A stretch of 45,509 nt of DNA, taken from sequence record OZ035793.1; one strand, 5' to 3'. Shown here one piece after another: positions 9,337 to 43,353 of the stretch. The notes below the pieces were generated by a model, which saw only the letters and a program-made list of their open reading frames with translations, did no database searches and was not told the DNA's origin. Source of the DNA: Veterinaerplatzvirus T145P1. The translations under genes were made by a program, and so were the position numbers. Within the stretch, counting starts at the first letter, position 1. The number at the start of each line of letters is the position of its first letter.

Positions 9337-9369
9337 TACCTCATCGAAACGAAATGAGAGATTAAAGAA

Positions 9370-9618
9370 ATGAATAACGTTAAAAACATCATCAAGCTCG
9401 CTGCGGTTCTGTTTGCTTTTTATGCGGTAGTTCAGATTGTAAACCCAACAGGTGAGGCTGATGCCAATAGCAAGGCAAACAAATATACTGTTGAATTTGC
9501 TAAGGATGAGCGAGCATGTCAGGAGCTTGTAGGTGGCAAAGTTGACCAAATCATGAAATACGGCAAAGAGGTTTGTAAGGACTCGGCTGCTAAGATTGCA
9601 AAAGAAAACACTAAGTAA
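9370..9618 (+). CDS. small secreted/membrane-anchored protein (moron)
   Basis: N-terminal hydrophobic signal-like segment, two Cys; own composite promoter element 9294-9336 with CATCGAAACGA leader; inserted between major tail and chaperone genes. Confidence 0.55.
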   Translation: MNNVKNIIKLAAVLFAFYAVVQIVNPTGEADANSKANKYTVEFAKDERACQELVGGKVDQIMKYGKEVCKDSAAKIAKENTK

Positions 9619-9656
9619 TAGAATACATACTCACAAACAATAAGAGGATTAACAAA

Positions 9657-9971
9657 ATGGCAAAGTTCAAACTTTCACTGGCAGCACTCCCAGACTTTAA
9701 GCTACCAGTAAAATTTAAGCTGGCTAACGACCAGGATGTAGAGGTTATCTTTACAGTCAAGCATAAGAAAACATCTGAGTTGCAGGAGCTGCTTAGCAAG
9801 GAAGACTTGAGCACAAAAGAGCTTATTATGGCAATTGCTTCTGATTGGGATCTGGAAGAAGAATACAACGAAGATAACGTTAATGAGTTCTCAGACCTTT
9901 TCCCGGCCTCAACTGTTGCACTGACAACTGCTTACATGCAAGCGCTTGCTGGTCAGCGAGTAAAAAACTAA
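9657..9971 (+). CDS. tail assembly chaperone (lambda gpG-like)
   Basis: 104 aa acidic protein immediately upstream of tape measure; ends in slippery heptamer A_AAA_AAC. Confidence 0.7.
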   Translation: MAKFKLSLAALPDFKLPVKFKLANDQDVEVIFTVKHKKTSELQELLSKEDLSTKELIMAIASDWDLEEEYNEDNVNEFSDLFPASTVALTTAYMQALAGQRVKN

Positions 9972-10291
9972 AACGAGCGGTGTATCTACAGTACCAGTCA
10001 GAGCCAACTGATGCCGAACTGGAAGCTATTGGGATGCGCCGCTCTGATTACGAAGATGAAGAGCCTGAGGTTTTACACTTCGACGACAACATGATGAAGG
10101 CGTGGGACATTTATTGTTCAATGGCTACGCAGTGGAGAGTAGGAGCCAATGGAGCTACAGGGTTAGATTACAACGTGCTAAATTTCCTCTTTAGAGTGTA
10201 TAATGTTTCTGAAGAAGAATTGGTACTCAGCGATTTACGCATCCTTGAAGCTAAGGCTCTTGAGATGATGGATAACCTGAGAAAAAAATAA
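9657..10291 (+). CDS. tail assembly chaperone frameshift fusion (gpGT-like), -1 frameshift at 9962-9968
   Basis: Heptamer a-aaa-aac (9962-9968) lies in the 0 frame just before the stop; the -1 frame is open from 9968 to 10291 and is the same frame as ORF 9980..10291. Confidence 0.6.
9962..9968 (+). other. -1 programmed ribosomal frameshift slippery site A_AAA_AAC
   Basis: Canonical X_XXY_YYZ heptamer in frame with codons AAA AAC, 1 codon before stop of the G-like ORF. Confidence 0.6.
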
Positions 10292-10312
10292 CCCGCTTCG
10301 GCGGGTTTTCTA
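10291..10312 (+). terminator. intrinsic terminator/attenuator
   Basis: ACCCGC-ttcg-GCGGGT plus TTTT. Confidence 0.6.
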
Positions 10313-10326
10313 TTATGGAGGCTTAG

Positions 10327-13308
10327 ATGGCAACAAATGAATTAGCCGGAATCACACTAGCCGTAGATGTTTCGCAAGTAGACAGGGGAACGCAATCCCT
10401 GCAAAAGTTCAGACAGGCAAACCAGCAAGCCGCTTCCGGTATTAGTGAATTCGTCAACGCTGAGCAGGTTGCTAAAAACCAGGCGAGAGATACGGCTCGT
10501 GCACTTTCTGAGCAGCAAGCGTCACTAGCTAAATTGCAAACAGCTATCGACCCAACTGCTGCAAAGTTCCGCAAGCTGCAAGAGGCAGCGGTGGGTCTTG
10601 ATAAGGCATTCGCTGCTGGCGTAGTTCCTGACGAGGAATTTTTCCGCTTAGGTGAGGCGCTAGAAACTCAAAACGCAAAACTTGCTCGTTCACGTGCGGC
10701 GCTAACTGAAGAGGGTAGGGCGGCAGCGCAGGCTGCAAAGGATAAGGCAAAAGCAAAGGCTGAAGCGGATAGATTCATTGCATCACTTGAGCGTCAGGCT
10801 CAAGCGGCAACATTGACGCGTGAGGAGTACTTAAAGTTACAAGCGGCCCAGCTTGGCGTTAGTTCTCAGGCAGCACCCATCATTGACAGAATCGCCGACG
10901 CATCACAGAAGGCAAACACCCAGTTAATTGCTCAGAGTAAGGCTTTTCAGAAATCAGGATTAAGCGCCGGGCAATACAAGAATGCCATATCTCAACTACC
11001 AGCGCAGATTACTGATATTGGCACGTCGCTTGCTGGTGGCATTCCGATTTGGCTTATTGCAATTCAGCAAGGTGGGCAGATCAAGGATGCATTTGGCGGC
11101 ATTGGTAACACCTTTAGATTCGCACTTGCAGCCTTAAACCCATTCAATGTAGCTGTTGGTGTTTTGGGTGGGGTACTTGTAGCTCTTGGTGTTGGTGCGG
11201 CTCAGGCTGAAAGTGAATTCAGAGCATTAAACTCTGCCATTGCATTTTCCAACAACTCTACAATCGCATCAATCTCGCAGGTTAGAGAGTTGGTTAGCTC
11301 TGTTTCTGATGCAACAGGTGCCACCAGAGGGCTTGTGACTAGCATCGCAACAAGCCTTATTGAGCAAGGGAACCTTACGCTGACGCAGATTGACAAGATT
11401 ACTAAATCGACCGCAAGATGGGCGCAGTTGACAGGCAAGGATGCGAAGGAAATTACTGGTTACTATAACCAGATTGCGAGCGACCCAATACAGGGATTGG
11501 TTGATTTGGATAAGCGCTTTAACTTCCTCACTCAGGGGCAGTTGACGACAATCGAAAACCTGAGAAAGACAAAGGGAGAGGTCGAGGCCGTTACCGCCGC
11601 AATTGACATTTTCAGCAAGTCGCAGGAAGCAAACCTTAACGACATAGCAGCGCAGTTAACTCCACTTGAGTTAGCCTGGAATGACTTTAGAAAGTACATC
11701 TCTGACATTTGGGATGCAATTAGCCGCAGAACGGTTGGGGCGCTAAACCTGTTTGTTGACGTAATTGCCGGAACAATTGAGCAGATCAGGGTCTTCATTA
11801 ACCAGGGTGACGTACTGATTGGTGAATTCGTAATTAGCGCAACGCAAGCGCTGCAAAACATTCCTGGTCTTGATGGTGTTGGTGATGACGTCATAAAGAG
11901 CCAGCAGAAGATTATCGATGCAGCCAAGAAGCAAAACCTTGAGCTAGAAAAGTCTATCAAGGAGCGCGATGCCAGAATAAGAGAAGGAGAACTTGGTTAC
12001 GTTACTCGCAGAGAAAATCAGAATACCAATGAGCAGTCAGGCACGGATGAGGAGTTTGCAAAAAGGAAGAAGGCGCTTCAGGATGAACTTGATGCGATCA
12101 AGAAGAACAGGAAAGAAGAAAATGGCAGGGTTAAAGAGCAAAGAGACCTTACAATTGGTTACGAATCTGGCGTACTGGCACTTCAGGCTCAACTCAAGGT
12201 TCTTCAGGAAAATAGGGATATTGGCGCAGTAATAAGTAATGAGCGCAAGCAGTATCTTCATGATGAAGCCAAATTCAGGATTCTTGAGCAGAGGCAGCTT
12301 GATGGTTCAATCACCAAAGAGCAGTCAAGACTTCTTCTTGAGAAGGATAAAGTCCTCGAATTGGCAAGGCAGAAGGCTGAACTTGGAGATCAGATTGTTT
12401 TGCAGGAGCGAGCCAATAAGTTAGCTGAAGATAACCGCAAGAAGATTCTTCAGATTAACAACGAAGCAAAAAACATTGATTTGGGGGCTGGTCTATCTTC
12501 TCGTGAACAACAGAGAGCCAAAGAGATTCAGGCTCTTCAGTCCAATCAGGTTAATGCTGGTGGCGCAATTGATGACGTGGATTTTCAGCAGCTTCTCGAG
12601 GCAAGACGTAACTTTTATGCTCAGGAAGATGCGTTACGTGAAAACTGGCTTGCTGGTGTGAACCAATCCTTTGCTAATTGGGCTGAGAGCGCGACGGATG
12701 CATTCTCAATTGCTGGAAGTTTAACCACCACAGTATTTGAAGGCATTACTGACCAGATTACTGACCTTGTAACAACTGGTGAAACTAACTTCAGAGAGTT
12801 CACTGTTAACATCCTTAAACAGATTGCTAAGATTGCGGCTCAGCTTCTTATTGTTAAGGCTATCGAGTCTAGTTTAAGTAGCTTTGGTGGTACTGGTGGC
12901 GCGATTGGCTCTATCGCATCTGCGATTGGTGGTGGATTCGCTAACGGTGGTTATACTGGTAATGGAGGGAAATACCAACCAGCAGGAACCGTACACCGTG
13001 GTGAGTTTGTATTCACAAAAGAAGCAACTAGTCGAATCGGTGTTAAGAACCTTTACGCTCTAATGAAAGGTTACGCAAACGGTGGTGTCGTTGGTGGTCC
13101 CTCTGGCTATGCAAATGGTGGCTTGGTTTCTGGAGGCACAGATGTTAATGTTAGTGGAATTACGGTTAACGTTAATAGTGGAATTGGAAGTGACCCAGAG
13201 CAGGCCAAGGCGCTGCAAAATGGCGTTAAGGCAATTGTAGCTGAAGAGATTTCTCAGTCTTTCCAGCAGGGTGGCAGAGCTTATCAGTACCTGCGCGGAT
13301 TTAACTAA
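10327..13308 (+). CDS. tail tape measure protein
   Basis: 993 aa, long Ala/Gln/Glu-rich coiled-coil N-terminal half, Gly-rich C-terminus; position after G/GT. Confidence 0.85.
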   Translation: MATNELAGITLAVDVSQVDRGTQSLQKFRQANQQAASGISEFVNAEQVAKNQARDTARALSEQQASLAKLQTAIDPTAAKFRKLQEAAVGLDKAFAAGVVPDEEFFRLGEALETQNAKLARSRAALTEEGRAAAQAAKDKAKAKAEADRFIASLERQAQAATLTREEYLKLQAAQLGVSSQAAPIIDRIADASQKANTQLIAQSKAFQKSGLSAGQYKNAISQLPAQITDIGTSLAGGIPIWLIAIQQGGQIKDAFGGIGNTFRFALAALNPFNVAVGVLGGVLVALGVGAAQAESEFRALNSAIAFSNNSTIASISQVRELVSSVSDATGATRGLVTSIATSLIEQGNLTLTQIDKITKSTARWAQLTGKDAKEITGYYNQIASDPIQGLVDLDKRFNFLTQGQLTTIENLRKTKGEVEAVTAAIDIFSKSQEANLNDIAAQLTPLELAWNDFRKYISDIWDAISRRTVGALNLFVDVIAGTIEQIRVFINQGDVLIGEFVISATQALQNIPGLDGVGDDVIKSQQKIIDAAKKQNLELEKSIKERDARIREGELGYVTRRENQNTNEQSGTDEEFAKRKKALQDELDAIKKNRKEENGRVKEQRDLTIGYESGVLALQAQLKVLQENRDIGAVISNERKQYLHDEAKFRILEQRQLDGSITKEQSRLLLEKDKVLELARQKAELGDQIVLQERANKLAEDNRKKILQINNEAKNIDLGAGLSSREQQRAKEIQALQSNQVNAGGAIDDVDFQQLLEARRNFYAQEDALRENWLAGVNQSFANWAESATDAFSIAGSLTTTVFEGITDQITDLVTTGETNFREFTVNILKQIAKIAAQLLIVKAIESSLSSFGGTGGAIGSIASAIGGGFANGGYTGNGGKYQPAGTVHRGEFVFTKEATSRIGVKNLYALMKGYANGGVVGGPSGYANGGLVSGGTDVNVSGITVNVNSGIGSDPEQAKALQNGVKAIVAEEISQSFQQGGRAYQYLRGFN

Positions 13309-13338
13309 TTAACGGGGCTTCGGCCCCTAAGGATTTTT

Positions 13339-13689
13339 ATGGCAATAGATAATTTTACATGGTGTACACAAATCCAGAATGGTGGAGCTGCATTTTCCAA
13401 TACAAACAATGTTCGTATTGTTAGCTTTGGCAATGGTTTTGAGCAAAGAGGAACAGGGGGCTACCGCAGTAATAAGCGCAGCTACCAGATGACCTATACA
13501 AACAAGGACTGGCGTGAGGTTATGGATTTCTGCTTCAATCACATCATCACACCATTCTTCTGGAAAACACCGCAAGGTGATACTTCTATGTTTGTTATTC
13601 AGCAGGATAGCATTTCAGTTACACCAATTAGTAGCGAAGTTCAGACTGTAAACATGCAATTCGTAGAAGTTTTTAGCTCAATGCGTTAA
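13339..13689 (+). CDS. minor tail protein (lambda gpM-like)
   Basis: 116 aa, first gene of an M-L-K-I-J-like tail-tip block after the tape measure. Confidence 0.6.
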   Translation: MAIDNFTWCTQIQNGGAAFSNTNNVRIVSFGNGFEQRGTGGYRSNKRSYQMTYTNKDWREVMDFCFNHIITPFFWKTPQGDTSMFVIQQDSISVTPISSEVQTVNMQFVEVFSSMR

Positions 13690-13693
13690 ACTA

Positions 13694-13716
13694 AGCCCCT
13701 ATATGGGGCTTTTTGT
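13694..13716 (+). terminator. intrinsic terminator/attenuator
   Basis: AGCCCC-tatat-GGGGCT plus TTTT. Confidence 0.6.
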
Positions 13717-13727
13717 TGGAGAAATAT

Positions 13728-14483: not shown

Positions 14484-14492
14484 GGGGGAACA

Positions 14493-15804: not shown

Positions 15805-15812
15805 ATATCATA

Positions 15813-15834
15813 CCCGCCTAGTGCGGGTTTTTTA
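15813..15834 (+). terminator. intrinsic terminator/attenuator between I-like and J-like genes
   Basis: CCCGC-ctagt-GCGGG plus T7. Confidence 0.65.
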
Positions 15835-20510: not shown

Positions 20511-20690
20511 TTTGTATTCCTTATTAAGTTGTTTCGTTTTGATGTAGTAATAATACAACCGTCAGTGCGGAATGTCTTTAGCTATTCGTGCTATTGCATA
20601 CACGTAACCGATGTAACTCGATGTATACAATCTCATCCGCGGAAAATGATATACGCACTGTTACGCAAATTTACGCATTGGTTACATTAA

Positions 20691-20750: not shown

Positions 20751-21055
20751 TCATGTAACTACTTCTATAGAGTGTTCCGGTTATAATTTTAATATCATGT
20801 GGATTTATACAGTATTGCGCTGCAGCTATACCAATGCACCCTCAGCAATGAATGATATACACGATATACACGATGGTTACATTGAGCTATAGCTGGGCCG
20901 AGATGCCAAAAAACGTAACTAGTGCCAATGCCTACACGGAATTACAAGGATTCACGTGTAAACTTAAATCAACGATTGGCAAAACCAATTGGACTGGTTA
21001 CGGTGCCGAATATATAGTTAACTCATCGAAAGCAAACAACCAGAGAGATACAGAA

Positions 21056-22879: not shown

Positions 22880-22924
22880 ATAGCATGAATTGCTAAAGAC
22901 AAAACTAAAGGGTGTGGGTATGAT
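22879..22924 (+). promoter_or_regulatory. composite promoter element (variant)
   Basis: AATAGCATGAATTGCTAAAG at Dam stop; 23 bp to TATGAT. Confidence 0.45.
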
Positions 22925-22953
22925 TACCCAATCAACAACGAACGAGGTTAAAG

Positions 22954-26705: not shown

Positions 26706-26725
26706 AATAGCACGAATTGCTAAAG
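26706..26725. promoter_or_regulatory. palindrome copy AATAGCACGAATTGCTAAAG without + strand -10
   Basis: Lies between the primase terminator and the tailspike start on the - strand; - strand TACAAT at 26729-26734. Confidence 0.4.
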
Positions 26726-26749
26726 TGGATTGTAGCATCTTTGAGTCAT

Positions 26750-27697: not shown

Positions 27698-27752
27698 AAT
27701 TACCTCCATAAACAATAAAGGCACTATACATAATGCAAAGTGCCATTGTTTA

Positions 27753-28232
27753 TCAAATCGTGCTGTTTTGCTCTTTCTTCTTTTGGTTCTCTAATTTTAT
27801 CTTGCGCCATGAACGACACTCTGGCTTAGTGGCTAATTCAGCCTCAGTGACGACTCGCAGCATATGGCGCTTTTTGCACCGAAGTGTCAGCGGTTTCCCG
27901 TTGCCGTCGAATTGCAGGTCTGGTCGGCAGAATGTAGCGCGAAAACCTTCTCCATTTCGCTTATAGTAGTTGTGAGAAAGTTGAGCCCCACGCGCAGAAA
28001 TCATACCGCGCTTAAACCATTCTTCTACAGCCTGTGGTGTTACCTTTAACTGCTTTGCGATATTCGCCTTTGTGCCGAAGAAATCAAGAACTATCTCTAG
28101 CCGCGCGCGTAGCCCGGCTCTTACTTCATCTTTTAAAACATAGTAGCCTGAAGGTCGTTTACGTTGCTTTTTGTCTTCGGTGCGGATGGTTCCGTTATTG
28201 CCGTTAATTGTTCGCTTGTCGACTGTATTCAT
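27753..28232 (-). CDS. helix-turn-helix DNA-binding protein (candidate transcription regulator)
   Basis: Basic 159 aa protein with HTH-like segment KANIAKQLKVTPQAVEEWFKRG; first gene of the - strand operon, next to divergent promoters. Confidence 0.5.
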   Translation of the reverse strand: MNTVDKRTINGNNGTIRTEDKKQRKRPSGYYVLKDEVRAGLRARLEIVLDFFGTKANIAKQLKVTPQAVEEWFKRGMISARGAQLSHNYYKRNGEGFRATFCRPDLQFDGNGKPLTLRCKKRHMLRVVTEAELATKPECRSWRKIKLENQKKKEQNSTI

Positions 28233-28243
28233 TTCATTACCTC

Positions 28244-28288
28244 AATAGCATTTTTTGTTAAAAGTCATCCTGATTTGATGGTATCATT
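28244..28288 (+). promoter_or_regulatory. composite promoter element (helicase operon)
   Basis: AATAGCATTTTTTGTTAAAA then about 22 bp to ATCATT. Confidence 0.45.
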
Positions 28289-28314
28289 GTACTCAATTAA
28301 ACGCTACAAGACAA
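28286..28314 (-). promoter_or_regulatory. sigma70-like promoter for the HTH-primase-tailspike operon
   Basis: - strand TTGTCT-17-TACAAT, overlapping face-to-face with the + strand helicase promoter. Confidence 0.45.
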
Positions 28315-28333: not shown

Positions 28334-30328
28334 ATGTTGCCTATCGAGAAGCTGGTTGCAAATTTCGATAAAGAAAGAATCAAACAGATTCAGAAAGACT
28401 ATCAGTTTGGAGAGATAACCCCTTACGAATTCCAGTGCGTGACATTTGATGCAATCGGAAAGGCTATTGGCAAGTACGAGGCACCATTTATCGCAGACCT
28501 TTCAGTATCTGCGGGTAAGACAATCATTCTTGCCATGATTGGTAAGCGCATGGAGCAGCTTGGGCTTCCCTATATGGTTCTCTCTCGCCAGTCAGAGATT
28601 ATCAGCCAGAACTCAGAAGAGCTTCGTAATTTCGGCATACGTAATAGCGTCTATTGCGCTGGCCTTAACGTCAAATCAGTTTACTACCCAACTATAGTGG
28701 CCAGTGAGGGTACGGCAGCCAACGGCTTGTTTAAGGGGCTTGGTGACTATGTTCCGGCAGTTATCGCTATAGATGAGTGTCACATGGTCGATCACATGGA
28801 TATCGTGGAGGCTGAAGAGAATGAAGAAACATTTGAGCAAATGAGCACAAAGAAAGGCGATATGGTTTTTAAGGATGGCGTAAACACAGGATTGCTTGGT
28901 ACTGGTCGTGCGCAGTACACGCTAATTATCACCGAGATGAAACGTCGTTGTCGTGAGAAGTACGGGCGTGAGCTTCGTATATTCGGTCTTACTGGCAGCC
29001 CGTATCGTAACAACGATCATATCGTCGTTAGCAACCCAAACATCCGTGGATTCTGGCGCAAAACAGTGATTCAGGTGCCAACAAATTATCTGGTTGATTT
29101 GGGCTTCGTTGTTCCTACTGTTTATGGTGAAGTTGGTGACCTGGGTTATGACCTTAGTGAGTTTGCGCCAGACGGAAGCGATGGCGTTAAAGACTTCAGC
29201 AAGAAAGAAATGGATGCAATGGCTGCAAAGATTCACGACAACCAATCAATGACCCAAAAGATAATGGGTTTTGTTGTGAAAATACTCGAGACTCGTAACG
29301 CTGCATTGGTAACATGCGCTGGCAAACTCCATTGTGATGAGGCTGCTGCGGCACTACCAGATGGATACCCTTACGCCATCATCACAGACTCTACGGGAGA
29401 GAGGAAGCGCAGGGAGATTCTGGCTGATTGCCAGACAGGTAAGTACAAAATAATATTCCAGATTGGTTGTCTTACTACGGGCGTAAACCAGCCGCTGTGG
29501 GATACTAGCGTCATACTACGCAAGATTGGCAGCCTAACGCTTATGATTCAGCTTCTTGGTAGGGGGATGCGCAAACTTAAGAGATCTCATATTGATGCTG
29601 GTTTTCATAAAGAAGATCACCTTGTGCTGGATTTTGCTGGCGCACTTGATGATATGGCTGAGCTTTACTTTGACCCAATTATTGAAGAGATTCAGGCTGA
29701 GAAGTTTAAATCCTCAAGAAAAGGTGGCGATGAGGTTCGTCAGTGTCCGCAATGTGGATATGAAAATTCCCCATTCGCTCGTCGCTGTAGCAATAAGATT
29801 GATGGCGTTAGATGCGATCACTTCTTTCAGTTCACAATTTGCGAAGACATTACCGACGCGCAAACTAAATCGGTAATTAAAAAGGGTTGTGGCGCTCGCA
29901 ATGACATAGCAGCAAAGGTTTGCAGGGAATGCGGCGAGATGCTTAAAGACCCAAATGCTAACCTGACTGGCAAAATGTATCGTCGTGGTGATTACCTTCG
30001 TGTTTATGATTTTCAAGTTGGGTTAAGTAAGAATCAGACAGGCATTGTAGTTAAGTACAATATAATGGCTCATAACGGAGAGAGATTTAACGCTTGGGAG
30101 TTCTTTAATCCAGAATCAGACCATCGAGTTTGCAGTGTGCTCTGGAAGAACTTTTGCTTAGCTCATATTGAGAATCGCACGGAAGCGGCACGAATTGGCA
30201 GGCTTAAAAATGCCAGAATGATTATGACTAACGTAGATAAGTTCCGTGCGCCAGTTCAGGTTACGCATCGCCGGAATGCAAAAGGAAAGGACGTGATAGC
30301 GTTTAAGAATTTTGGAGAATTATTATGA
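28334..30328 (+). CDS. SF2 DNA helicase with C-terminal zinc ribbons
   Basis: Walker A SAGKT, DExH-like DECH motif, C-terminal CxxC pairs. Confidence 0.8.
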   Translation: MLPIEKLVANFDKERIKQIQKDYQFGEITPYEFQCVTFDAIGKAIGKYEAPFIADLSVSAGKTIILAMIGKRMEQLGLPYMVLSRQSEIISQNSEELRNFGIRNSVYCAGLNVKSVYYPTIVASEGTAANGLFKGLGDYVPAVIAIDECHMVDHMDIVEAEENEETFEQMSTKKGDMVFKDGVNTGLLGTGRAQYTLIITEMKRRCREKYGRELRIFGLTGSPYRNNDHIVVSNPNIRGFWRKTVIQVPTNYLVDLGFVVPTVYGEVGDLGYDLSEFAPDGSDGVKDFSKKEMDAMAAKIHDNQSMTQKIMGFVVKILETRNAALVTCAGKLHCDEAAAALPDGYPYAIITDSTGERKRREILADCQTGKYKIIFQIGCLTTGVNQPLWDTSVILRKIGSLTLMIQLLGRGMRKLKRSHIDAGFHKEDHLVLDFAGALDDMAELYFDPIIEEIQAEKFKSSRKGGDEVRQCPQCGYENSPFARRCSNKIDGVRCDHFFQFTICEDITDAQTKSVIKKGCGARNDIAAKVCRECGEMLKDPNANLTGKMYRRGDYLRVYDFQVGLSKNQTGIVVKYNIMAHNGERFNAWEFFNPESDHRVCSVLWKNFCLAHIENRTEAARIGRLKNARMIMTNVDKFRAPVQVTHRRNAKGKDVIAFKNFGELL

Positions 30329-30744
30329 AGATTACAGATAAAGAAGATTACATTGAGTTTTACCAGGGTCCGGTTAAGTCATGCCCTAAAGAGGATGACG
30401 AACAAATCTTTTGCTCTGATTGGGTTAAGTATAACTACCCAGATATGGTATTTTTCCATTGCGTGAATGAGGGAAAGAAAACCATTGGTCAAGCAAGAAA
30501 AGACCAGGCTAAGGGGCTTCTAAAAGGCGTATCAGACTGTATGTTTCTTATTCCTGAATCACTTCGAGGTAAGTATCCTTTCGGAGCTATAGAGCTAAAG
30601 AGGGCTGGCAAAACTCAAGCAAGTCCAGTCAGCGAAGAACAGAAAGCATTCCTGAAAAGTGTAATGGAATCAGGCGGTTTCTCGGCAGTCGCCTACGGAC
30701 GTGAGGGTTTTCTTGCAGCATTCAAAGAAATGATTTCAAAATAG
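30325..30744 (+). CDS. VRR-NUC domain nuclease (putative)
   Basis: Small basic protein with D...E.K-like segment (DCMFLIP ... IELKR); start overlaps helicase stop. Confidence 0.5.
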   Translation: MKITDKEDYIEFYQGPVKSCPKEDDEQIFCSDWVKYNYPDMVFFHCVNEGKKTIGQARKDQAKGLLKGVSDCMFLIPESLRGKYPFGAIELKRAGKTQASPVSEEQKAFLKSVMESGGFSAVAYGREGFLAAFKEMISK

Positions 30745-30784
30745 CACGAATTGCTAAAGACGATTTTAAAAGATGGGGTATAGT
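30740..30784 (+). promoter_or_regulatory. composite promoter element
   Basis: AATAGCACGAATTGCTAAAG (includes TAG stop), 22 bp, TATAGTTA, CCATCGAAACGA. Confidence 0.55.
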
Positions 30785-30820
30785 TACTCCATCGAAACGA
30801 AACACAAAGAGAGTAATAAA

Positions 30821-31594: not shown

Positions 31595-31785
31595 TTAATG
31601 CAACTTGTGTAAAAGCAAATGGTTTCTTTACTCTACTTGAAGATTACGAAATTATCTTTAATTCAGATGGCGCAATAACAGTATTGAGCGATAATGGATG
31701 CTATTGGTTCGTTAGTTATCAAGGTGACGGGTATTACGGGTGTAGAGATTCGAATGGAAAAGAAGTTAGCTTCTTAGTTGAATAG
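31591..31785 (+). CDS. hypothetical protein
   Basis: ATGA overlap with upstream stop; ends at the TAG that starts a composite promoter element. Confidence 0.5.
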   Translation: MINATCVKANGFFTLLEDYEIIFNSDGAITVLSDNGCYWFVSYQGDGYYGCRDSNGKEVSFLVE

Positions 31786-31825
31786 CACTTTTTGTTAAAA
31801 CTCAAATCCACGTATGGATTATATT
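31781..31825 (+). promoter_or_regulatory. composite promoter element
   Basis: AATAGCACTTTTTGTTAAAA, 22 bp with hairpin ATCCA-cgta-TGGAT, TATATT. Confidence 0.5.
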
Positions 31826-31856
31826 AAGCACATCAACAACACAGGGGGTTAAAAAA

Positions 31857-32760: not shown

Positions 32761-33891
32761 ATGGCAACTGCAAAAATTACCAACGAAGAACTACGCGAAG
32801 AACTGGCAAATGGCATGACAAACAAGGCAATAGCAGAGAAATACGGAATGAACATTCGCAACGTTGAATTGCGTCGTAGTAAATTGGCGAAACAAGGTGA
32901 AGGGCATGGTCGCGATGTAAGCAACCTAATCCCTCAAGGCTATGCAGTTAAAGGCGTGTCTAGCCTAATTGGTGCTGATGGCGAGATTAAGCAACAGTGG
33001 GTTAAGTCAGATATAGACAAGGAGAAGCAAGAAGAGATGATGCTTCAGGCAATTCAGGCCCTAACTGATGAGTTGCCTCGTGAGAAACCCAAAGCCTTAA
33101 GGGTTGGTTTGTTTGAGGACACTTTAAGCCTTTACCCCGTATTCGACCTTCACATTGGCGCAATGGCTCACCATGCTGAATGTGGCGAGAACTACAGCAC
33201 TGAAATCGCTGAGCGAATCCTTAATGATTACTTTGATTACGCGGTTGCAAAAGCACCTAACTCAAAGAAGGCCGTATTGCTGATTGGTGGTGACTTCCTT
33301 CACTCTGACGGAATGGAAGCGGTAACACCAACCAGTCGTCATGTTCTTGATCAAGATAGCCGTTATCACAAACTTGTTTACGTAGCAGTGCGAGCGACAC
33401 GTCGAGCAATTAGCCGTATGCTTGATAAGCACGCCGAGGTTGAGGTTCAGATTATTCCAGGTAACCACGATCTCTCAGGTATGATTTGGCTTCGTGCTGC
33501 AATGGCAGCTTTCTATATGGATGAGCCTCGAGTTAATGTTGATGCGTCCCCCGCTGCGCTTCACGTAACGCAATTTGGGAAGACGCTGCTTGGTTACTGC
33601 CATGGGCACGAACTCAAAAAGCCTGATACCCGACTATCAGCACTGGCTCGTGACCATCGCAAAGCATTTGGTGAATCAGAGTATGTTTACACCCATTCAG
33701 GCCACTATCACCATCAAACTATTACGGAAGGAAATCTGGGTATTGATGAATCACACGGCCAGCTTGGAGCGAAAGATGCGTACAGTGCTAACGGAGGTTA
33801 TCGCTCTTACCGACAGGCTTCGGTGATAATTTATAGTCCTGAGTTTGGTGAGATTGGACGATTTACTTGCCGCCCGGAAATGTTTAGTTAA
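32761..33891 (+). CDS. calcineurin-like metallophosphoesterase with N-terminal HTH-like region
   Basis: Motifs FDLH, GGDFLHSD, GNHD, GHE, HSGHYHH; N-terminal TNKAIAEKYGMNIRNVELRR resembles a DNA-binding HTH. Confidence 0.7.
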   Translation: MATAKITNEELREELANGMTNKAIAEKYGMNIRNVELRRSKLAKQGEGHGRDVSNLIPQGYAVKGVSSLIGADGEIKQQWVKSDIDKEKQEEMMLQAIQALTDELPREKPKALRVGLFEDTLSLYPVFDLHIGAMAHHAECGENYSTEIAERILNDYFDYAVAKAPNSKKAVLLIGGDFLHSDGMEAVTPTSRHVLDQDSRYHKLVYVAVRATRRAISRMLDKHAEVEVQIIPGNHDLSGMIWLRAAMAAFYMDEPRVNVDASPAALHVTQFGKTLLGYCHGHELKKPDTRLSALARDHRKAFGESEYVYTHSGHYHHQTITEGNLGIDESHGQLGAKDAYSANGGYRSYRQASVIIYSPEFGEIGRFTCRPEMFS

Positions 33892-33934
33892 TAGCACTTT
33901 TTGCCTAACGCATGCCGTAGAAATGCGGCATAAT
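33890..33934 (+). promoter_or_regulatory. composite promoter element
   Basis: AATAGCACTTTTTGCCTAA, 22 bp with hairpin ATGCCG/CGGCAT, CATAAT, CATCGAAACGA leader. Confidence 0.55.
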
Positions 33935-33975
33935 TACCACATCGAAACGAGATGAACTAAACGAGGAAACACAAA

Positions 33976-37376: not shown

Positions 37377-37406
37377 TACTTCTCTCCGTGTTGTTTCTGA
37401 GCGGCC

Positions 37407-37450
37407 ATTATAACAACGACCGCTTATAAAGCATTATCAATTTGTGCTAT
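37407..37450 (-). promoter_or_regulatory. composite promoter element (- strand, ATPase gene)
   Basis: - strand ATAGCACAAATTGATAA, 22 bp, TATAAT with -10 inside hairpin AGCGG...CCGCT. Confidence 0.5.
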
Positions 37451-38152: not shown

Positions 38153-38186
38153 TTTGTTTTCCTTTGTGTCTTTCGTTTCGATGGGA

Positions 38187-38235
38187 TAACTATACAGGAA
38201 AAGCCCCGAATGGCTTTAGCGATTAGTGCTATTTA
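38187..38235 (-). promoter_or_regulatory. composite promoter element (- strand)
   Basis: - strand AAATAGCACTAATCGCTAAAG, 22 bp, TATAGTTA, CCCATCGAAACGA. Confidence 0.55.
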
Positions 38236-39057: not shown

Positions 39058-39067
39058 ATCTCAATCC

Positions 39068-39247: not shown

Positions 39248-39411
39248 TTATCCTGGCCTTTTAAATTATAACGCTCTCTCAGAACTTCAACCCATTCTTG
39301 CGCGTCATTCTCTCTCATGAAGAAACTTAAATTTGGGTACTTGTGAAACCCTTTAAGTTCAACTACCCAATGACCACCTTCGTAACTATAACTAACTTTC
39401 TTCTCTGTCAT
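39244..39411 (-). CDS. hypothetical small protein (55 aa)
   Basis: Not in ORF track; first ORF after the long - strand leader. Confidence 0.4.
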   Translation of the reverse strand: MTEKKVSYSYEGGHWVVELKGFHKYPNLSFFMRENDAQEWVEVLRERYNLKGQDK

Positions 39412-39622
39412 TTTGTTACCTTTTGAGTTTTTTTATTATCGACATCTCTTCAACGTACTCGCTACAACTCGGGATTTTACTCCCGGCCCGGCATCCTAAC
39501 AAAAGGACCCGATCGGCGCTTTGGTGGGTGAGGTAACGCTTCCTCACATTGCGCGGTAGTATTTACTCCTTTTGGTCTCTTTCGAGAGTGACTCAGAGTC
39601 TGCTACCGTGTCGATGAGATTA

Positions 39623-39668
39623 AGTATACGCATAGTTAGCCACACTGTCTTTAGCAAAAAGTGCTATT
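39623..39668 (-). promoter_or_regulatory. composite promoter element (- strand, start of long leader)
   Basis: - strand AATAGCACTTTTTGCTAAAG, 23 bp, TATACT, then TCATCGACACGG. Confidence 0.45.
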
Positions 39669-39682
39669 CGTTAGATTTATGT

Positions 39683-39777
39683 ATTGTTGCAGATATTGCA
39701 ATGATTCACTTGATTATTGCACATACAGCAATATTGCTTCCGATGCAATGATGTTTTTGATTGTTGCGAAAAGTGAA
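39683..39777. repeat. nested direct repeats around a central dyad (candidate iteron/operator array)
   Basis: ATTGTTGC at both ends, TGCAATGAT twice inside, central perfect palindrome GCAATATTGC. Confidence 0.6.
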
Positions 39778-39952
39778 ATTAAGTGGTGAGTGAGTGAATG
39801 AAAGATGGATGGACTACCATACAAGTTGATTTTTACCAATCTATGGGAGCCTCACGGATATACGCGTATCCTCCGTATACTCAGTGTCGTCACAAAAGTT
39901 AGTGACCACTAACCTACGTTTTTACGCGATATATACACACGATATACAATAT

Positions 39953-40021
39953 AATATCTATATATATCAACCTTTTACTTTATTATTATTATTATTATTA
40001 TATATATGTATACTGTGTATA
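39953..40021. repeat. AT-rich long direct repeat copy B with (TTA)7 tract
   Basis: Same sequence as 20691-20750 except the microsatellite length and 3 substitutions. Confidence 0.85.
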
Positions 40022-40227
40022 CCGGTAATTGGTGAGATTATTGATATGTTCCGCGCAGATATTCTGACACCTGTCAGAAATGGATGGCATTGTAGGAATA
40101 AAAGGCACATATATAGGGAATGGCTTCAAAAATCTGTACACATCGGATACGGCACATTTACAACCAGCAATGGAGGGGCCTCTGGAGGTAAAAAGCGTAT
40201 CCATGATAAAATAGACGAAAATATACA

Positions 40228-40256
40228 TTGACCGACACGTAAATAGATGGCAATAT
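40228..40256 (+). promoter_or_regulatory. sigma70-like promoter TTGACC-17-CAATAT
   Basis: Canonical spacing; leader CACTGAAACGAAG; upstream of gene 40297. Confidence 0.5.
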
Positions 40257-40296
40257 AGCAGTCACTGAAACGAAGTAAAACAAACGAGGTATCAAC

Positions 40297-40845
40297 ATGC
40301 AGAAAGTAACACTAGGTGAAGTTATCCGTGAGATGGTGCGCAACGCGATGGTGTCCGAGAGTGGTGAGTTTAAAGTTCCGGTTAGCCAGATATTCAAACT
40401 GGTTCGAGGCAAGGAATACCCTGAAATGGTGTATGACGAAGAGACTAGTGAGATCCTCAACCTGGCAGATAGGGCGATGCCGGAACTAAAGAACTCATAC
40501 ATCTATAACACAGTGTCGAGAATGACAGAGCTTCGCGATGCTAATAAGCGAGCGAGATATAAGTTCATCTGGATTGATGATGACGGAGAGCAAACAAGGC
40601 CCGGTAGCTTCGACGGTGATGGCGCTGATAAATACCTGGTCATATACATTGAGAACGGCGCGCACTGGACTGGGAGTCGCGAAAAGAAAAAGCAGGAAGC
40701 GGAGAAAGAGGCGGCTATCATTGAAAAGTTCAAGTCTAGACTGCTCAAGCTGTCACCAAGTGTTGCTGGCTTGGAAGGTGAAGAACTTAAGGGCGCTGTT
40801 ACAATGATTAATGCTTATCAGGAAATGATTAAGGAGACTAAGTAG
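40297..40845 (+). CDS. hypothetical protein
   Basis: 182 aa; RBS gagg; upstream sigma70-like promoter TTGACC-17-CAATAT at 40228-40256. Confidence 0.55.
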   Translation: MQKVTLGEVIREMVRNAMVSESGEFKVPVSQIFKLVRGKEYPEMVYDEETSEILNLADRAMPELKNSYIYNTVSRMTELRDANKRARYKFIWIDDDGEQTRPGSFDGDGADKYLVIYIENGAHWTGSREKKKQEAEKEAAIIEKFKSRLLKLSPSVAGLEGEELKGAVTMINAYQEMIKETK

Positions 40846-40934
40846 TAGACTACCATACCACTTGTGGTACAGCGAGGAAGAGGTTGAGGTGGCCATTGAG
40901 TTCTATAGGAAAGCTAAATCACTACTGAATGGTA

Positions 40935-40979
40935 AATAGCACTTTTTGCCTAACGCGGTAATGCCATGGATGGCATAAT
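40935..40979 (+). promoter_or_regulatory. composite promoter element
   Basis: AATAGCACTTTTTGCCTAA, 22 bp with hairpin ATGCCA-tgga-TGGCAT, CATAAT, CATCGAAACGA. Confidence 0.55.
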
Positions 40980-41017
40980 AGCCTCATCGAAACGAGATAC
41001 GTAAATGAGGATTTAAA

Positions 41018-41236
41018 ATGAGCAAGGCAATCACACTGCAATGCCTTAAGACAAATAACCCAGAGTTCTTAAAAGGTCACAAATATGTGGCAACCCTGGT
41101 GGATGGGAAAACATGGGCGGTTAAGGGTGGATTCCAGGATTACAAATTCCCACTTGAGCACATACCTGGCGGAAACCTTGGTTTTGTTAGTGACTGCCGC
41201 TCAGTTAAGTTTGTTTTTGAGGTTGTAATGAAATAG
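41018..41236 (+). CDS. hypothetical protein
   Basis: Promoter element 40935-40979 plus CATCGAAACGA leader. Confidence 0.55.
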   Translation: MSKAITLQCLKTNNPEFLKGHKYVATLVDGKTWAVKGGFQDYKFPLEHIPGGNLGFVSDCRSVKFVFEVVMK

Positions 41237-41282
41237 CAATAATTGCTAAATCTTCCGCAAGGCCATTTGATATAGTGGCCTT
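41231..41282 (+). promoter_or_regulatory. composite promoter element with -10 inside hairpin
   Basis: AAATAGCAATAATTGCTAAA, 22 bp, TATAGT; inverted repeat AAGGCCA...TGGCCTT (41259-41282) encloses the -10. Confidence 0.5.
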
Positions 41283-41317
41283 GTTGAAGCAAAACAACCA
41301 ATCACGAGGTATAAATT

Positions 41318-41545
41318 ATGGTTATCAATAGTGTTCGAATCTCTGACGACTACAACGAGCAGGCTGAGGTTCTTGTTTACAAAGTCTTCAATGTCGATCG
41401 GGATACAATGAAGGTTAAGCTCGACCTCAATCCTGATGACGAATCATATCCGTCAACATACATGCTGTACACGCCAGACCAGGCTCGCCAGTTAGCAGCG
41501 TATCTGATGGAAGCGGCCCACCGAGCTGATAAGGGGGTTTTATGA
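41318..41545 (+). CDS. hypothetical protein, paralog family member A
   Basis: Shares RI.D...QAEV ... NPDD ... Y.PD.AR.LAA with ORF 41790..41999. Confidence 0.55.
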   Translation: MVINSVRISDDYNEQAEVLVYKVFNVDRDTMKVKLDLNPDDESYPSTYMLYTPDQARQLAAYLMEAAHRADKGVL

Positions 41546-41757
41546 TTACCGATCGCAAGCTATTTAAAGACATGGAAGGCGACGACTGCTGGATTGACAC
41601 GATGACAAATTTCGGAGAGGTCACTGTTGAGATTGTAATTGACGATGACTCTGGAACCTTTCCCGTGCAAGATGCGGATACCGTACGCGCAATGGGTGAG
41701 CACTTAATCAAGATGGCTGACTACATGGAGAGCCAGGGGAAATTAGCTGTAAATTAA
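41542..41757 (+). CDS. hypothetical acidic protein
   Basis: ATGA coupling to upstream gene. Confidence 0.5.
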   Translation: MITDRKLFKDMEGDDCWIDTMTNFGEVTVEIVIDDDSGTFPVQDADTVRAMGEHLIKMADYMESQGKLAVN

Positions 41758-41789
41758 TCAAGATTCGCATTATCAATAACAACGAGGAA

Positions 41790-41999
41790 ATGAAGATGGA
41801 AAATATTCGTATTGAAGATGTTCACTTTGACCAAGCTGAGGTCGGAATCACAAAAAGCGTTCAAGGATACGTTGTTTATCTAGACTTCAATCCGGATGAC
41901 TACGGGGACGGCCAGATGCTGATGCACTACAGTCCTGATAAGGCGCGCAAATTGGCGGCAGCATTAATCCTGGCGGCGGAGGAGGTGGAGAAGCAATGA
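41790..41999 (+). CDS. hypothetical protein, paralog family member B
   Basis: Paralog of 41318..41545 by visible sequence similarity. Confidence 0.55.
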   Translation: MKMENIRIEDVHFDQAEVGITKSVQGYVVYLDFNPDDYGDGQMLMHYSPDKARKLAAALILAAEEVEKQ

Positions 42000-42256
42000 A
42001 ACGTTTAATGAAATGCATGACTATTATTGCGGCAATGATTGCTCTTACTGGTTGCGAGAAGGCACCTGAGGTTCAGATTCAGTCAGGTGAATTCAATGTG
42101 GAGCGCCTATTCACAGTGGATGGATGTACCGCCTACCGATTCCGAGATAGCGATAGAGCCATCTACTACACAAATTGCAATGGCAGTACGCAGAGTGAGT
42201 ACAGGCACGGCAGGGCCATGAGACAAGAAACAGTTCAGACAGATCGCACTAATTGA
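41996..42256 (+). CDS. lipoprotein (second candidate exclusion/envelope protein)
   Basis: Signal peptide with lipobox LTGC, four Cys in mature part. Confidence 0.55.
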   Translation: MKRLMKCMTIIAAMIALTGCEKAPEVQIQSGEFNVERLFTVDGCTAYRFRDSDRAIYYTNCNGSTQSEYRHGRAMRQETVQTDRTN

Positions 42257-42290
42257 TAAAAGGGGATCCATCCTGACTGGTATAATCCCC
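42244..42290 (+). promoter_or_regulatory. degenerate composite element with extended -10 in hairpin loop
   Basis: CGCACTAATTGATAAA, 22 bp, TGgTATAAT; stem GGGGAT...ATCCCC flanks the -10. Confidence 0.45.
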
Positions 42291-42439
42291 AGCATCAACC
42301 ACATGAATGGAAGTTAAGTGACGATATACGAACATAAATTCAGTAGCAGGGGTATTGATATGCTCCTGCGCTATGTAGACGAAAAATACGCAAATCTCAT
42401 GCTTAAGACGCATGGCGGCACAATAACGAGGATTGAGAT

Positions 42440-42769
42440 ATGAGTAAATACGATCGCAAGATTATTGGCATTGATGGCACAGTAACAACAGTAGATGTTT
42501 ATCGTGTTCTTGATGCGTTTGGCGTATCTGACCCAGCCACTCAGCATGCGGTAAAGAAGATGCTTTGCACTGGCCTGCGTGGACACAAGGATTACTTAAC
42601 TGACCTTAATGACTCCATTGAGTCACTACAGAAGGCTAAAGAGATTTACTGGCAGAAGATGATTCATGAATCCGATAAAATCACTGATTCAATTTTAAAT
42701 CCACCAAAAGAAGCGAGATTTAGTACTGCTAATGGTTCAGAATTCACTTTCGGAAAGGTTAGAGTCTAA
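42440..42769 (+). CDS. hypothetical protein
   Basis: RBS gagg; preceded by ~145-nt leader from a hairpin-embedded TGnTATAAT promoter. Confidence 0.5.
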   Translation: MSKYDRKIIGIDGTVTTVDVYRVLDAFGVSDPATQHAVKKMLCTGLRGHKDYLTDLNDSIESLQKAKEIYWQKMIHESDKITDSILNPPKEARFSTANGSEFTFGKVRV

Positions 42770-42813
42770 ATAGCACGAATTGCTAAACCCGCTCCTGCGG
42801 GTTTTGTTATAGT
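42768..42813 (+). promoter_or_regulatory. composite promoter element with terminator-like hairpin in spacer
   Basis: AAATAGCACGAATTGCTAAA, spacer contains CCCGC-tcct-GCGGG-TTTT, then TATAGTTA. Confidence 0.55.
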
Positions 42814-42841
42814 TAGTTCACACCAATCGAGAGGTAAGAAA

Positions 42842-42934
42842 ATGAAGCAATACACATCAAGCAATCACCATAACGGTCACATCATGCAGTTCTATCGCCA
42901 CAATCTGAAGACTAAGGGAGTGTTTGGAAAATGA
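42842..42934 (+). CDS. hypothetical small protein (30 aa)
   Basis: Not in ORF track; RBS gagagg; ATGA overlap with next gene. Confidence 0.3.
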
Positions 42935-43149
42935 TTACAATTAACCTGTCAGAAAAGCAAGCAGCAGAACTCAAGTGCATGCTGTCAATCTTTGAGAAGA
43001 CAAATGACCGAGCAATTGCAAAAGAGGTCACGACTCAAATCAACAACCAGCAGTTCGACGTCAGTGACTTCGAGTCGTCACGGCAGTACGAAGCATTAAG
43101 CGTCAACGCTGCATACCTGGCTAACTGGGATAAGGCAACGAAGAAATGA
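42931..43149 (+). CDS. hypothetical protein
   Basis: ORF-track ORF. Confidence 0.5.
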
Positions 43150-43283
43150 TTTACATCCACACGTACTACACTGGTAAGTCTAATAGCGTCAAACATGTCC
43201 GTGTTCACGATAACTACGAGAGCGCAAAAGCTCAATGGTTGGTTCTTGGTGGTGACATTAATTCATACAGAGTTGCTGAGTAG
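43146..43283 (+). CDS. hypothetical small protein (45 aa)
   Basis: Not in ORF track; ATGA overlap; its TAG stop begins a promoter palindrome. Confidence 0.35.
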   Translation: MIYIHTYYTGKSNSVKHVRVHDNYESAKAQWLVLGGDINSYRVAE

Positions 43284-43329
43284 CACTAATTGCTAAAACA
43301 GTATTGGGGTAATTTGTTATAGTTACCCC
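43281..43329 (+). promoter_or_regulatory. composite promoter element
   Basis: TAGCACTAATTGCTAAAA, 22 bp, TATAGTTA; stem GGGGTAA...TTACCCC spans the -10; CATCGAAACGA leader. Confidence 0.55.
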
Positions 43330-43353
43330 ATCGAAACGAGAGAGGAATAAGAA

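Follow-up and report, generated by a model that had tools for sequence, protein, structure and literature searches.

A recurrent start-site motif and marbox-like boxes in the promoters of the T1-like phage Veterinaerplatzvirus T145P1

The Mor/C promoters of phage Mu and the cII promoters of phage lambda lack a −35 element and are served by phage-encoded activators that bind symmetric or direct-repeat sites. Here, we analyse a recurrent 13-nucleotide motif, and the promoters in which it lies, in the 45,509-nucleotide DNA of Veterinaerplatzvirus T145P1 (OZ035793.1; this whole stretch is called the window below), which shares 98.5% identity over 16 kb with Veterinaerplatzvirus T145P1 records of 44.8–45.3 kb. 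Veterinaerplatzvirus T145P1 is a T1-like virulent coliphage of the Drexlerviridae, subfamily Braunvirinae, and the virulent lifestyle of Drexlerviridae phages has been described (PMC11447400, PMC7718038). In bacterial class II marbox promoters, the box bound by the activator is in forward orientation, overlaps the −35 position and is centred between −36 and −55 (PMC12052159, PMC10268841), and a −35 element is characteristically absent (PMC10268841). In the cryo-electron microscopy structure of Rob and RNA polymerase on one such promoter, micF of Escherichia coli, Rob contacts G−47 and A−45 (PMC9178005). Strong phage promoters such as T5 N25 have conserved initially transcribed regions (PMC5961368, PMC12464699), with a block just downstream of +1 that forms part of the functional promoter and, in T5 N25, sets the efficiency of promoter clearance. 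In TLS, a 21-nt direct repeat (aaATAGCACnnnTTGnTAAAA) has been reported that is also present in T1, Rtp and Rogue1, and its function was left open between a stoperator, an enhancer site and an UP-like element (PMC11447400); few sigma-70 promoters are identified in genome papers, where the ATAGCAC repeat is left without a known function (PMC11447400).

The promoters of the window resemble class II promoters such as micF in that their 20-bp box is asymmetric, combines GCAC and YAAA elements at a distance of 7 bp, is in forward orientation and overlaps the −35 position, and they share with micF the 18-bp gap to the −10, GCAC at −47 to −44, the absence of a recognisable −35 and a sigma-70 −10. They differ from micF in belonging to a virulent phage, in which ~18–25 near-consensus boxes per 45–50-kb genome serve most transcription units; moreover, their −10 is usually extended (G−14), their spacer usually contains a hairpin, and ~30% of them carry a conserved start module that micF lacks. 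As in the Mu Mor/C and lambda cII promoters, the putative activator site overlaps the −35 region, is centred near −42 and is combined with a good −10, but it matches the asymmetric box of a host activator, of which the phage encodes no homologue (a tblastn search of the phage genome for MarA gave no match). The TLS repeat is the same element as the box, with the same orientation relative to genes and the same distance to the start codon. Similar to T5 N25, a purine-rich conserved block just downstream of +1 forms part of the promoter; unlike in T5 N25, the block has an unrelated sequence, makes up the entire leader ahead of the Shine-Dalgarno (SD) sequence, and has an effect on clearance that we infer. 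Judged by sequence, the TLS repeat can now be placed at −50 to −31 of a defined promoter; a fixed −10, a start-site motif and a marbox match were not part of the TLS report (PMC11447400).

The start motif and its promoter class

The motif CATCGAAACGARA is present in the window in six exact copies and one copy with a single mismatch, giving seven copies at ≤1 mismatch where 0.12 are expected, and none of 100 shuffled sequences reached this number. The six exact copies are located where the first-pass annotation of this DNA had reported them, i.e., on the plus strand at 9342, 30790, 33940, 40985 and 43329 and on the minus strand near 38170 (38171–38183). An additional minus-strand copy reported near 39625 turned out to be a relaxed sequence, CATCGACACGGTA, with three mismatches at 39604–39616, and a better copy with one mismatch (CATCAAAACGAAA; 20532–20544, minus strand) had been overlooked. 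All copies begin exactly 3 nt past an 8-bp −10 box, whereas the interval up to the start codon ranges between 12 and 23 nt. The −10 box had been given as TATAGTTA, but at 33940 and 40985 the motif is preceded by CATAATTA/CATAATAG.

All seven good copies belong to one promoter class. Upstream of every copy, and at a fixed distance, is a 16–20-bp element (aATAGCACnnnTTGCTAAa; 17 copies at ≤1 mismatch versus 0.35 expected), and ~18 promoters of the window follow a single design in which a 20-bp box (aATAGCACnnWTTGYTAAAa) at −50 to −31 is followed by a spacer and an extended −10, with no −35. The spacer is 18 bp in 14 of these 18 promoters and 17 or 19 bp in the remainder; it is followed by the extended −10 (G−14, TATAGT or TATAAT), the discriminator TAYYYC, C−1 and A+1. 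Thus described, each of the ~18 elements has a −10-like hexamer 17–19 bp past the 20-bp box and then YYC-A and an A/C-rich start. The motif is at the same time the initially transcribed sequence (ITS) and the entire pre-SD part of the 5′ untranslated region (5′UTR): the consensus start reads A-T-C-G-A-A-A-C-G-A-R-A, and the SD follows almost at once. With the start set at the A of CATCG, 5′UTR lengths peak at 24–27 nt in the family (median 26 nt) and are 24–35 nt for the motif copies of the window.

This layout is common to T1, TLS, Rtp, JeanPiccard, AKS96, ISF002, Salmonella phage phSE-2 and Klebsiella phage ABTNL-2. The boxes sit at promoters, because 154 of the 169 boxes in nine Drexlerviridae genomes have a −10 at a fixed distance downstream. 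Metagenomic relatives have the same promoter layout; because the scan of viral contigs with a 14-base box pattern gave mostly single chance matches, only loci with at least two boxes were used. A comparison of leaders in related phages, which the first-pass annotation had proposed as a check, documented that the motif is conserved across the whole family. In the family profile, which comprises 112 non-redundant promoters from nine genomes, G−47, C−46 and A−45 are invariant, C−44 is present in 91%, and A−50, T−49 and A−48 are near-invariant; the right half of the box has W at −42/−41 and then T−40, T−39, G−38, Y−37, T−36, A−35, A−34 and A−33. The core has G−14 (79%), T−12 A−11 T−10 and T−7, the discriminator T-A-C-C-Y-C, C−1 (71%) and A+1 (83%), and the start continues as T-C-G-A-A-A-C-G-A-A-A; between +4 and +17, T stays below 10% at most positions.

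The motif marks the start of these promoters rather than leaders in general. In the nine Drexlerviridae genomes, +1 of these promoters accounts for 46 of the 76 matches to ATCGAAACGA at ≤1 mismatch; the remaining 30 come close to the number expected by chance (~25), and those inspected were coding sequences or overlapped a start codon, with no promoter-less 5′ leader among them. Within two mismatches of ATCGAAACGA are 49 of 167 non-redundant promoters (~30%), and because the distribution of distances is bimodal, the start motif constitutes a discrete class. Across the 167 promoters, presence of the motif is linked to that of TAYYYC in the non-transcribed discriminator (odds ratio 8.5, p = 3e-8); no association was found with the three spacer variants of the box (GAA, TTT, TAA), with TTGC versus TTGT, or with TG at −15/−14. 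For promoters of unrelated genes from different subfamilies, identity is 0.46 in the ITS and 0.28, i.e., about random, in the spacer, and the six exact copies of the window likewise have unrelated spacers.

Mobile promoter cassettes exist in T4-type phages, and the copies could similarly have no function of their own and be kept alike by duplication or recombination of promoter cassettes. We note that the −10, the discriminator and the start form a near-identical ~25-bp block in several copies, that whole hairpin-plus-start modules recur before unrelated genes in different genera, and that the phage has recombination genes of its own, encoding both an exonuclease VIII-like protein and an annealing protein. 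Nevertheless, because the copies do not resemble one another in the 18-bp spacer that separates the conserved blocks, copying of whole cassettes does not explain the conservation, and the motif persists across subfamilies with proteins that are only ~50% identical. We give this explanation very little credence.

The first-pass annotation had also described the motif as conserved independently of promoter class. Promoters with other architectures do indeed have relaxed copies downstream of them, in register with the predicted start, but because all seven good copies share one class, this independence applies to relaxed copies only. Two such copies follow −35-like promoters without a marbox. In the early-type promoter at 40228–40275 (plus strand), TTGACC (40228–40233), 17 bp and TGgCAATAT (40248–40256) precede CACTGAAACGAAG (40263–40275) and a gene starting at 40297; the reported relaxed motif is thus present and follows a plausible −35/extended −10 promoter, but this promoter is not the canonical sigma-70 promoter it had been taken for, as its −10 matches at 3 of 6 positions and the consensus scan did not list it. 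A further relaxed copy, CATCGAAAGCAAA at 21024–21036, follows a TATAGTTA promoter (20989–21036, plus strand; −35-like TTGGAC 20989–20994, 18 bp, TATAGT 21013–21018) that is conserved in Rtp and JeanPiccard. The promoter of the small terminase gene (terS), at 45498–45509 joined to 1–29 directly after a terminator, is also marbox-less; it has the extended −10 TGgTATAAT and a start (ACCAACAAAGGAGG) that shares the A/C-richness of the others, and it is conserved in Rtp, T1 and TLS. Because the module is linked to the discriminator, is independent of box variants and recurs in relaxed form at the marbox-less 40228 and 20989/21013 promoters and as a related A/C-rich start at the terS promoter, it appears to go with the core promoter and the start site and not with the activator site. 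We conclude that the 13-mer probably represents positions −1 to +12 of sigma-70 promoters, i.e., a combined start-site and initially transcribed module.

The upstream box and its reader

By sequence and geometry, the upstream box is a host marbox, i.e., a predicted site for MarA, SoxS, Rob or RamA. It fits such a site at every specified position, and the degeneracies of the site are obeyed across the family profile. The search pattern gcannwwntgnnaaa of the Grainger laboratory (PMC12052159) has 16 exact matches in the window versus 1.19 expected, and 14 of these are the repeats. [quoted passage not shown] At ≥13 bits, the window has 18 matches, two of which (4477 and 4678) are not at promoters, versus 1.45 in shuffled sequences, and the density of such matches is 3.8–6.2 per 10 kb in the nine Drexlerviridae genomes versus 0.64 in unrelated viral loci. 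In geometry, too, these promoters correspond to class II: relative to the predicted start, the box lies forward at −50 to −31 with its centre at about −40, its gap to the −10 equals the 18 bp of E. coli micF, and GCAC at −47 to −44 is in the register of the Rob–RNA polymerase–micF complex. Family positions −35 to −30 read AAAacc, so that no −35 is recognisable, and the −10 is of the sigma-70 type.

Several points weigh against this assignment or limit it. The variant boxes at 33891, 37450 and 40936 score <13 bits. Among the papers that could be searched, we found none linking Drexlerviridae to MarA, SoxS or Rob, or a marbox to a phage promoter. Unstressed cells contain little MarA and SoxS, and most of their Rob is sequestered (PMC10268841). 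Since T1-like phages nonetheless thrive in ordinary cultures, the extended −10 might be enough by itself, with the box as a modulator only; the box may thus tune rather than enable transcription. Finally, the box holds a partial palindrome, TAGCA-N5-TGCTA, to which a Cro-like protein of the phage could bind instead.

This protein is encoded at 27753–28232 (minus strand) and is a conserved 159-aa protein (phrog_2856) with a helix-turn-helix (HTH) like that of P22 Cro and a basic, invariant N-terminus (DKRxxNGNNG). The start codon of its gene lies 13 nt from the marbox at 28245–28264, which is shared with the divergent helicase promoter, and the same arrangement is present in T1, TLS and Rtp. 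In place of MarA, SoxS or Rob, this regulator might read the box and either activate or repress transcription. Besides the palindrome and the resemblance to P22 Cro, such a role is suggested by the occurrence of the regulator gene among phage records solely in phages of the T1-like kind (824 records, mostly 44–52 kb) and by a box that in every genome examined lies 12–14 nt upstream of its start codon, an arrangement like that of genes under autoregulation. However, the conservation of the box is asymmetric and tracks the degeneracies of the marbox (Y−37, W at −42/−41, AAA at −35 to −33, A−50), its PWM scores equal those of the best chromosomal marboxes, and its geometry equals that of micF. 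Moreover, the genera have different recognition helices (TPQAVEEW, SNQTVQGW, NLKTVWGW, SIQVVQQW) but an invariant box. Because the helix varies while the box is constant, and because the box is conserved asymmetrically, the Cro-like protein is the less likely reader; a symmetric operator for it was rejected on the same grounds, and we keep the regulator as an unlikely rival to the host activators.

Three other identities were considered for the box. The sigma-54 consensus is TGGCAC-N5-TTGC, with GG and GC doublets 10 bp apart and a start ~12 bp downstream. The box, TAGCAC-N3-TTGC, has AG in place of GG and is 2 bp short, and a sigma-70 −10 lies 22 bp after TTGCTA. UP elements are A/T-only tracts at −38 to −59, and the invariant G−47, C−46 and G−38, together with C−44 at 91%, break such a tract. 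A stoperator of the mycobacteriophage L5 type, as suggested for the TLS repeat (PMC11447400), would consist of repressor sites dispersed through the transcription units of a temperate phage; it was rejected in view of the position of the boxes at promoters and the virulence of the phages; a repressor homologue was not searched for. As a separate observation, an orphan consensus marbox at 26707–26726 (plus strand) lacks a −10 at class II distance. A terminator-like hairpin comes after it, and its sequence overlaps that of the tail-fibre gene on the opposite strand, in the 5′ region of this gene; the same is the case in JeanPiccard, Rtp, T1 and ISF002.

Function of the start module

In a large ITS library, T's and TG within the first ~7 transcribed bases slowed escape of the polymerase, and purine content correlated with productive yield (PMC5961368). 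Positions +1 to +15 of the phage promoters have the properties of a clearance-type ITS as defined there: they are T-poor and purine-rich and contain neither a TG pause motif nor a −10-like hexamer (PMC5961368). In all seven copies T is absent from +4 to +12, so there is no −10-like hexamer, with A at position 2 and T at position 6, that could serve as a promoter-proximal sigma-70 pause or Q-loading site, and this candidate function was rejected. The module most likely acts on start-site choice and promoter clearance and in addition provides an open, U-poor 5′ end. In the mechanism that we propose, a host MarA-family activator on the box and the extended −10 would together hold the polymerase, replacing the −35 contact, and Rob would be the likeliest activator because it is made constitutively (PMC9178005). 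C−1/A+1 would fix the start site, and host RNA polymerase would initiate at the A of CATCG. The start module would then allow quick clearance of the polymerase from a tightly held, activator-bound promoter: past +2 the RNA would be T-free and purine-rich and hence offer no initial-pause motifs (T or TG), no −10-like hexamer and no weak rU:dA hybrid. The same 12 nt would leave a very short mRNA leader with an unstructured, U-poor 5′ end beside the ribosome site.

The following points run counter to this proposal. The start sites are predictions from the −10 and the C/A rule only. A need for a T-poor, purine-rich sequence does not explain why the exact 12-mer AT + CGAAA + CGARA is kept across genera, and for escape the CG steps at +3/+4 and +8/+9 offer no obvious advantage (PMC5961368); a dedicated factor may read the module. 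Furthermore, because the motif is also the entire pre-SD leader, selection at the DNA level and selection at the RNA level are inseparable by sequence.

The first-pass annotation had favoured an RNA function, and the 5′ AUCGAAACGARA of the transcripts could indeed be a ribosome standby or S1 landing site, a stability determinant or the target of an RNA-binding regulator; a DUF3850 protein that is annotated as RNA-binding in ISF002 came into consideration as a leader-binding factor. Consistent with such a role, the motif is the whole pre-SD part of a 24–35-nt leader and lies within the 30S footprint, similar A/C-rich starts follow promoters of other architectures, and a U-poor 5′ end would be a poor RNase E substrate. 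Over the stretch between +1 and nucleotide 18 of the gene, the leaders have less structure than dinucleotide shuffles (mean z +0.67; mean minimum free energy −1.6 kcal/mol), with 76% of nucleotides +1 to +12 unpaired. Against it, the motif is anchored to the start site and not to the SD, and it is linked to the untranscribed discriminator. No copy of the motif was found ahead of promoter-less ribosome sites in the same genomes; the sequence upstream of these sites is 30% T versus 15%, and often a terminator is directly followed by the SD. Because promoter-less ribosome sites are T-rich, the A/C-rich tract is not a general requirement for translation. An Rfam search of the window returned only a tRNA-Arg and no leader family, and no covarying structure was identified for the leader. 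A 5′ hairpin UCG-AAA-CGA was rejected, given that a stem of 3 bp is too short for stability and that relatives (TCAAAACGA, TCGAAACTA) disrupt it without a compensating change.

The two translational enhancers that we considered were also rejected. The best duplexes between leader and 16S rRNA are weaker than those of 90–95% of shuffled leaders and the longest exact complement is 6 nt, and complementarity beyond the SD, as expected of an epsilon-type base-pairing enhancer, is lacking. The S1-binding enhancer proposed by the first-pass annotation fared no better: the tract is single-stranded but its composition (A 52, G 15, C 21, T 12%) with 12% U is unlike that of A/U-rich S1 targets, and it is not positioned relative to the SD. 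In sum, the tests did not support the step from conservation to an RNA function, the motif being start-anchored, discriminator-linked, unstructured and without 16S pairing or an Rfam match, and we regard an RNA-level role as rather unlikely.

One further observation speaks for the RNA. A 44-nt T/C-rich segment (CCCTCGTTAAGTTTCGTTTCTCTCGTTG...; 45427–45470, plus strand) just before a strong terminator (45471–45497) is complementary to the leaders as a group, with a mean duplex energy of −17.7 kcal/mol versus −11.95 ± 1.3 kcal/mol for shuffles, and of the 88 phage records that match the 110-bp stretch in which it lies (45400–45509), 80 do so with at least 90% identity. This segment may be a 3′-end-derived regulatory RNA or a relic.

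We also considered that the block from −6 to +12 is a DNA operator bound by a phage or host protein that switches a subset of promoters during the infection cycle. The block is a discrete sequence class and not a composition trend, it spans the untranscribed discriminator as well as the start, it overlaps +1, where repressors act, and it is carried by only ~30% of promoters, as would be the case for a sub-regulon. However, it has no dyad symmetry beyond TCG-AAA-CGA, and its two CGAAA units are 5 bp apart, which places them on opposite faces of the helix. It serves a mixture of genes from the early, lysis and tail regions, and no candidate operator-binding protein was identified. We consider an operator highly unlikely and retain the start-site and initially transcribed module as our working hypothesis.

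Individual promoters, genome context and implications

The copy CATCGAAACGAAA (−1 to +12) at 9342–9354 (plus strand; predicted start A 9343; gene start 9370) belongs to the promoter at 9293–9336 with marbox ATAGCACTTTTTGCTAAAGC (9293–9312), an 18-bp spacer and TATAGT (9331–9336). The same CATCGAAACGAAA lies at 30790–30802 (plus strand; predicted start 30791; gene start 30821) after the promoter at 30741–30784 (marbox 30741–30760, 18-bp spacer, TATAGT 30779–30784), where the TAG of the marbox is the stop codon of the upstream open reading frame 30325–30744, and at 38171–38183 (minus strand; predicted start 38182; gene start 38152) after the promoter at 38189–38232 (marbox 38232–38213, 18-bp spacer, TATAGT 38194–38189). 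CATCGAAACGAGA occurs three times, all on the plus strand. At 33940–33952 (predicted start 33941) it precedes a small gene (start 33976) ahead of the lysis genes, and the promoter at 33891–33934 has the variant marbox ATAGCACTTTTTGCCTAACG (33891–33910), an 18-bp spacer with a hairpin and CATAAT (33929–33934). At 40985–40997 (predicted start 40986; gene start 41018), the promoter (40936–40979) similarly combines a variant marbox (40936–40955), an 18-bp spacer and CATAAT (40974–40979). At 43329–43341 (predicted start 43330; gene start 43354), the promoter (43280–43323; 18-bp spacer, TATAGT 43318–43323) has the marbox with the best PWM score (43280–43299; 17.4 bits) and GGGGTAA/TTACCCC arms around its −10. 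The one-mismatch copy CATCAAAACGAAA at 20532–20544 (minus strand; predicted start 20543) precedes a lipoprotein-like gene (phrog_4281; start 20510) and follows the promoter at 20550–20594 (marbox 20594–20575, 19-bp spacer, TATTAT 20555–20550). The relaxed member with CATCGACACGGTA (39616–39604) has a long leader and spans 39604–39667 on the minus strand (marbox 39667–39648, TATACT 39628–39623).

Two plus-strand marbox promoters have a different class of start: the first, at 2116–2179, has its marbox at 2116–2135, its −10 at 2154–2159 and its start at 2166 (ACACCAACAAGAGG), and the second, at 42770–42834, has its marbox at 42770–42789, a terminator-like hairpin in the spacer, its −10 at 42808–42813 and its start at 42820 (ACACCAATCGAGAGG). 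The first-pass annotation had grouped them with the window start as a second leader class; the sequence is exact at 2163–2179, whereas the sites at 42817 (TTCACACCAATCGAGAGG) and at the window start (CTGACACCAACAAAGGAGG) are similar and not identical, and the window has only one match at ≤2 mismatches. The remaining marbox promoters of the plus strand are at 22880–22943 (start 22931, ITS ATCAACAACGAAC), at 28245–28306 ahead of the helicase gene (box 28245–28264, 17-bp spacer), at 31782–31844 (start 31832, ITS ATCAACAACACAG), at 41233–41295 (start 41283, ITS GTTGAAGCAAAAC, with AAGGCCA/TGGCCTT arms around the −10), at 42243–42305 (start 42293) and at 44147–44209 (start 44197, ITS ATCAATACAACGA). 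On the minus strand, such promoters lie at 27716–27766 ahead of the primase gene (start about 27716) and at 37388–37450 in front of the gene for the second helicase (start 37400).

Folding of the 36-nt stretch between −33 and +3 is far more stable than that of shuffles (mean −9.8 kcal/mol, mean z −2.7). In 63 of the 112 non-redundant promoters the stem arms flank the −10, with arm sequences that differ between promoters and no U-tract following; in 28 of 112 the hairpin is found immediately upstream of the −10, where the T1 record has annotated terminators. Examples in the window are at 43300–43332 (GGGGTAA...TTACCCC at 43300–43329), 41253–41285 and 42790–42812. A fixed-register count of covariation over the hairpins gave a modest enrichment (z 2–3 per pair), which is modest because the hairpin register differs between promoters. 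We also observed that TAG (in ATAGCAC) or TAA within the box is often the stop codon of the upstream gene, with the hairpin directly after it; this is the case at 2117–2119, 30742–30744, 31783–31785, 41234–41236 and 44148–44150 of the window and at 1451, 2270, 3536, 6532 and 38954 of T1.

Because the end-to-start junction reproduces the sequence upstream of the Rtp small terminase gene, the 45.5-kb window is, from its sequence, a complete, circularly permuted T1-like phage genome. Several late genes (portal, tape measure, minor tail) have only a terminator hairpin, a U-rich tract and an SD in front of them, without a promoter (2566–2623, 10292–10326, 13690–13727 and similar sites), and therefore their expression must depend on read-through of terminators. 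A non-coding stretch of ~550 bp (39680–40230) separates divergent early units, contains a (TTA)7 microsatellite (39980–40001), AT-rich tracts and repeated TTGCA/TGCAA motifs, and may be a packaging or replication control region. A tRNA-Arg gene (anticodon TCT) is located at 45152–45228 (plus strand), as also in JeanPiccard and AKS96. Database records labelled as Campylobacter or Pseudomonas phages (e.g., MG065688.1) are 87% identical to T145P1 and probably carry mislabelled hosts or represent contaminants.

Taken one step further, and only tentatively, we suggest that Drexlerviridae could delegate most promoter recognition to host Rob, MarA, SoxS and RamA by means of ~20 consensus class II marboxes per genome, and that the start module ATCGAAACGARA could be a second, family-specific signal read by a dedicated factor, for which an “anti-leader” RNA from 45427–45497 is a candidate. 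If true, lytic development would be wired to the host's sensing of bile, antibiotics and oxidative stress, and phage transcription would be immune to a block of −35 recognition. T1-like phages are common, are present in therapy collections and are notorious laboratory contaminants, and their transcription has long been obscure; the marbox reading, the −10, the start site and the module together would provide a complete promoter model. If this model holds, expression of these phages would depend on or be tuned by regulators of multidrug resistance, with consequences for phage–antibiotic combinations and for growth in the gut, where bile salts activate Rob, and the compact 75-bp cassettes would be ready-made parts for activator-dependent promoters. 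The start module itself would be a natural case in which the initially transcribed sequence belongs to the promoter.

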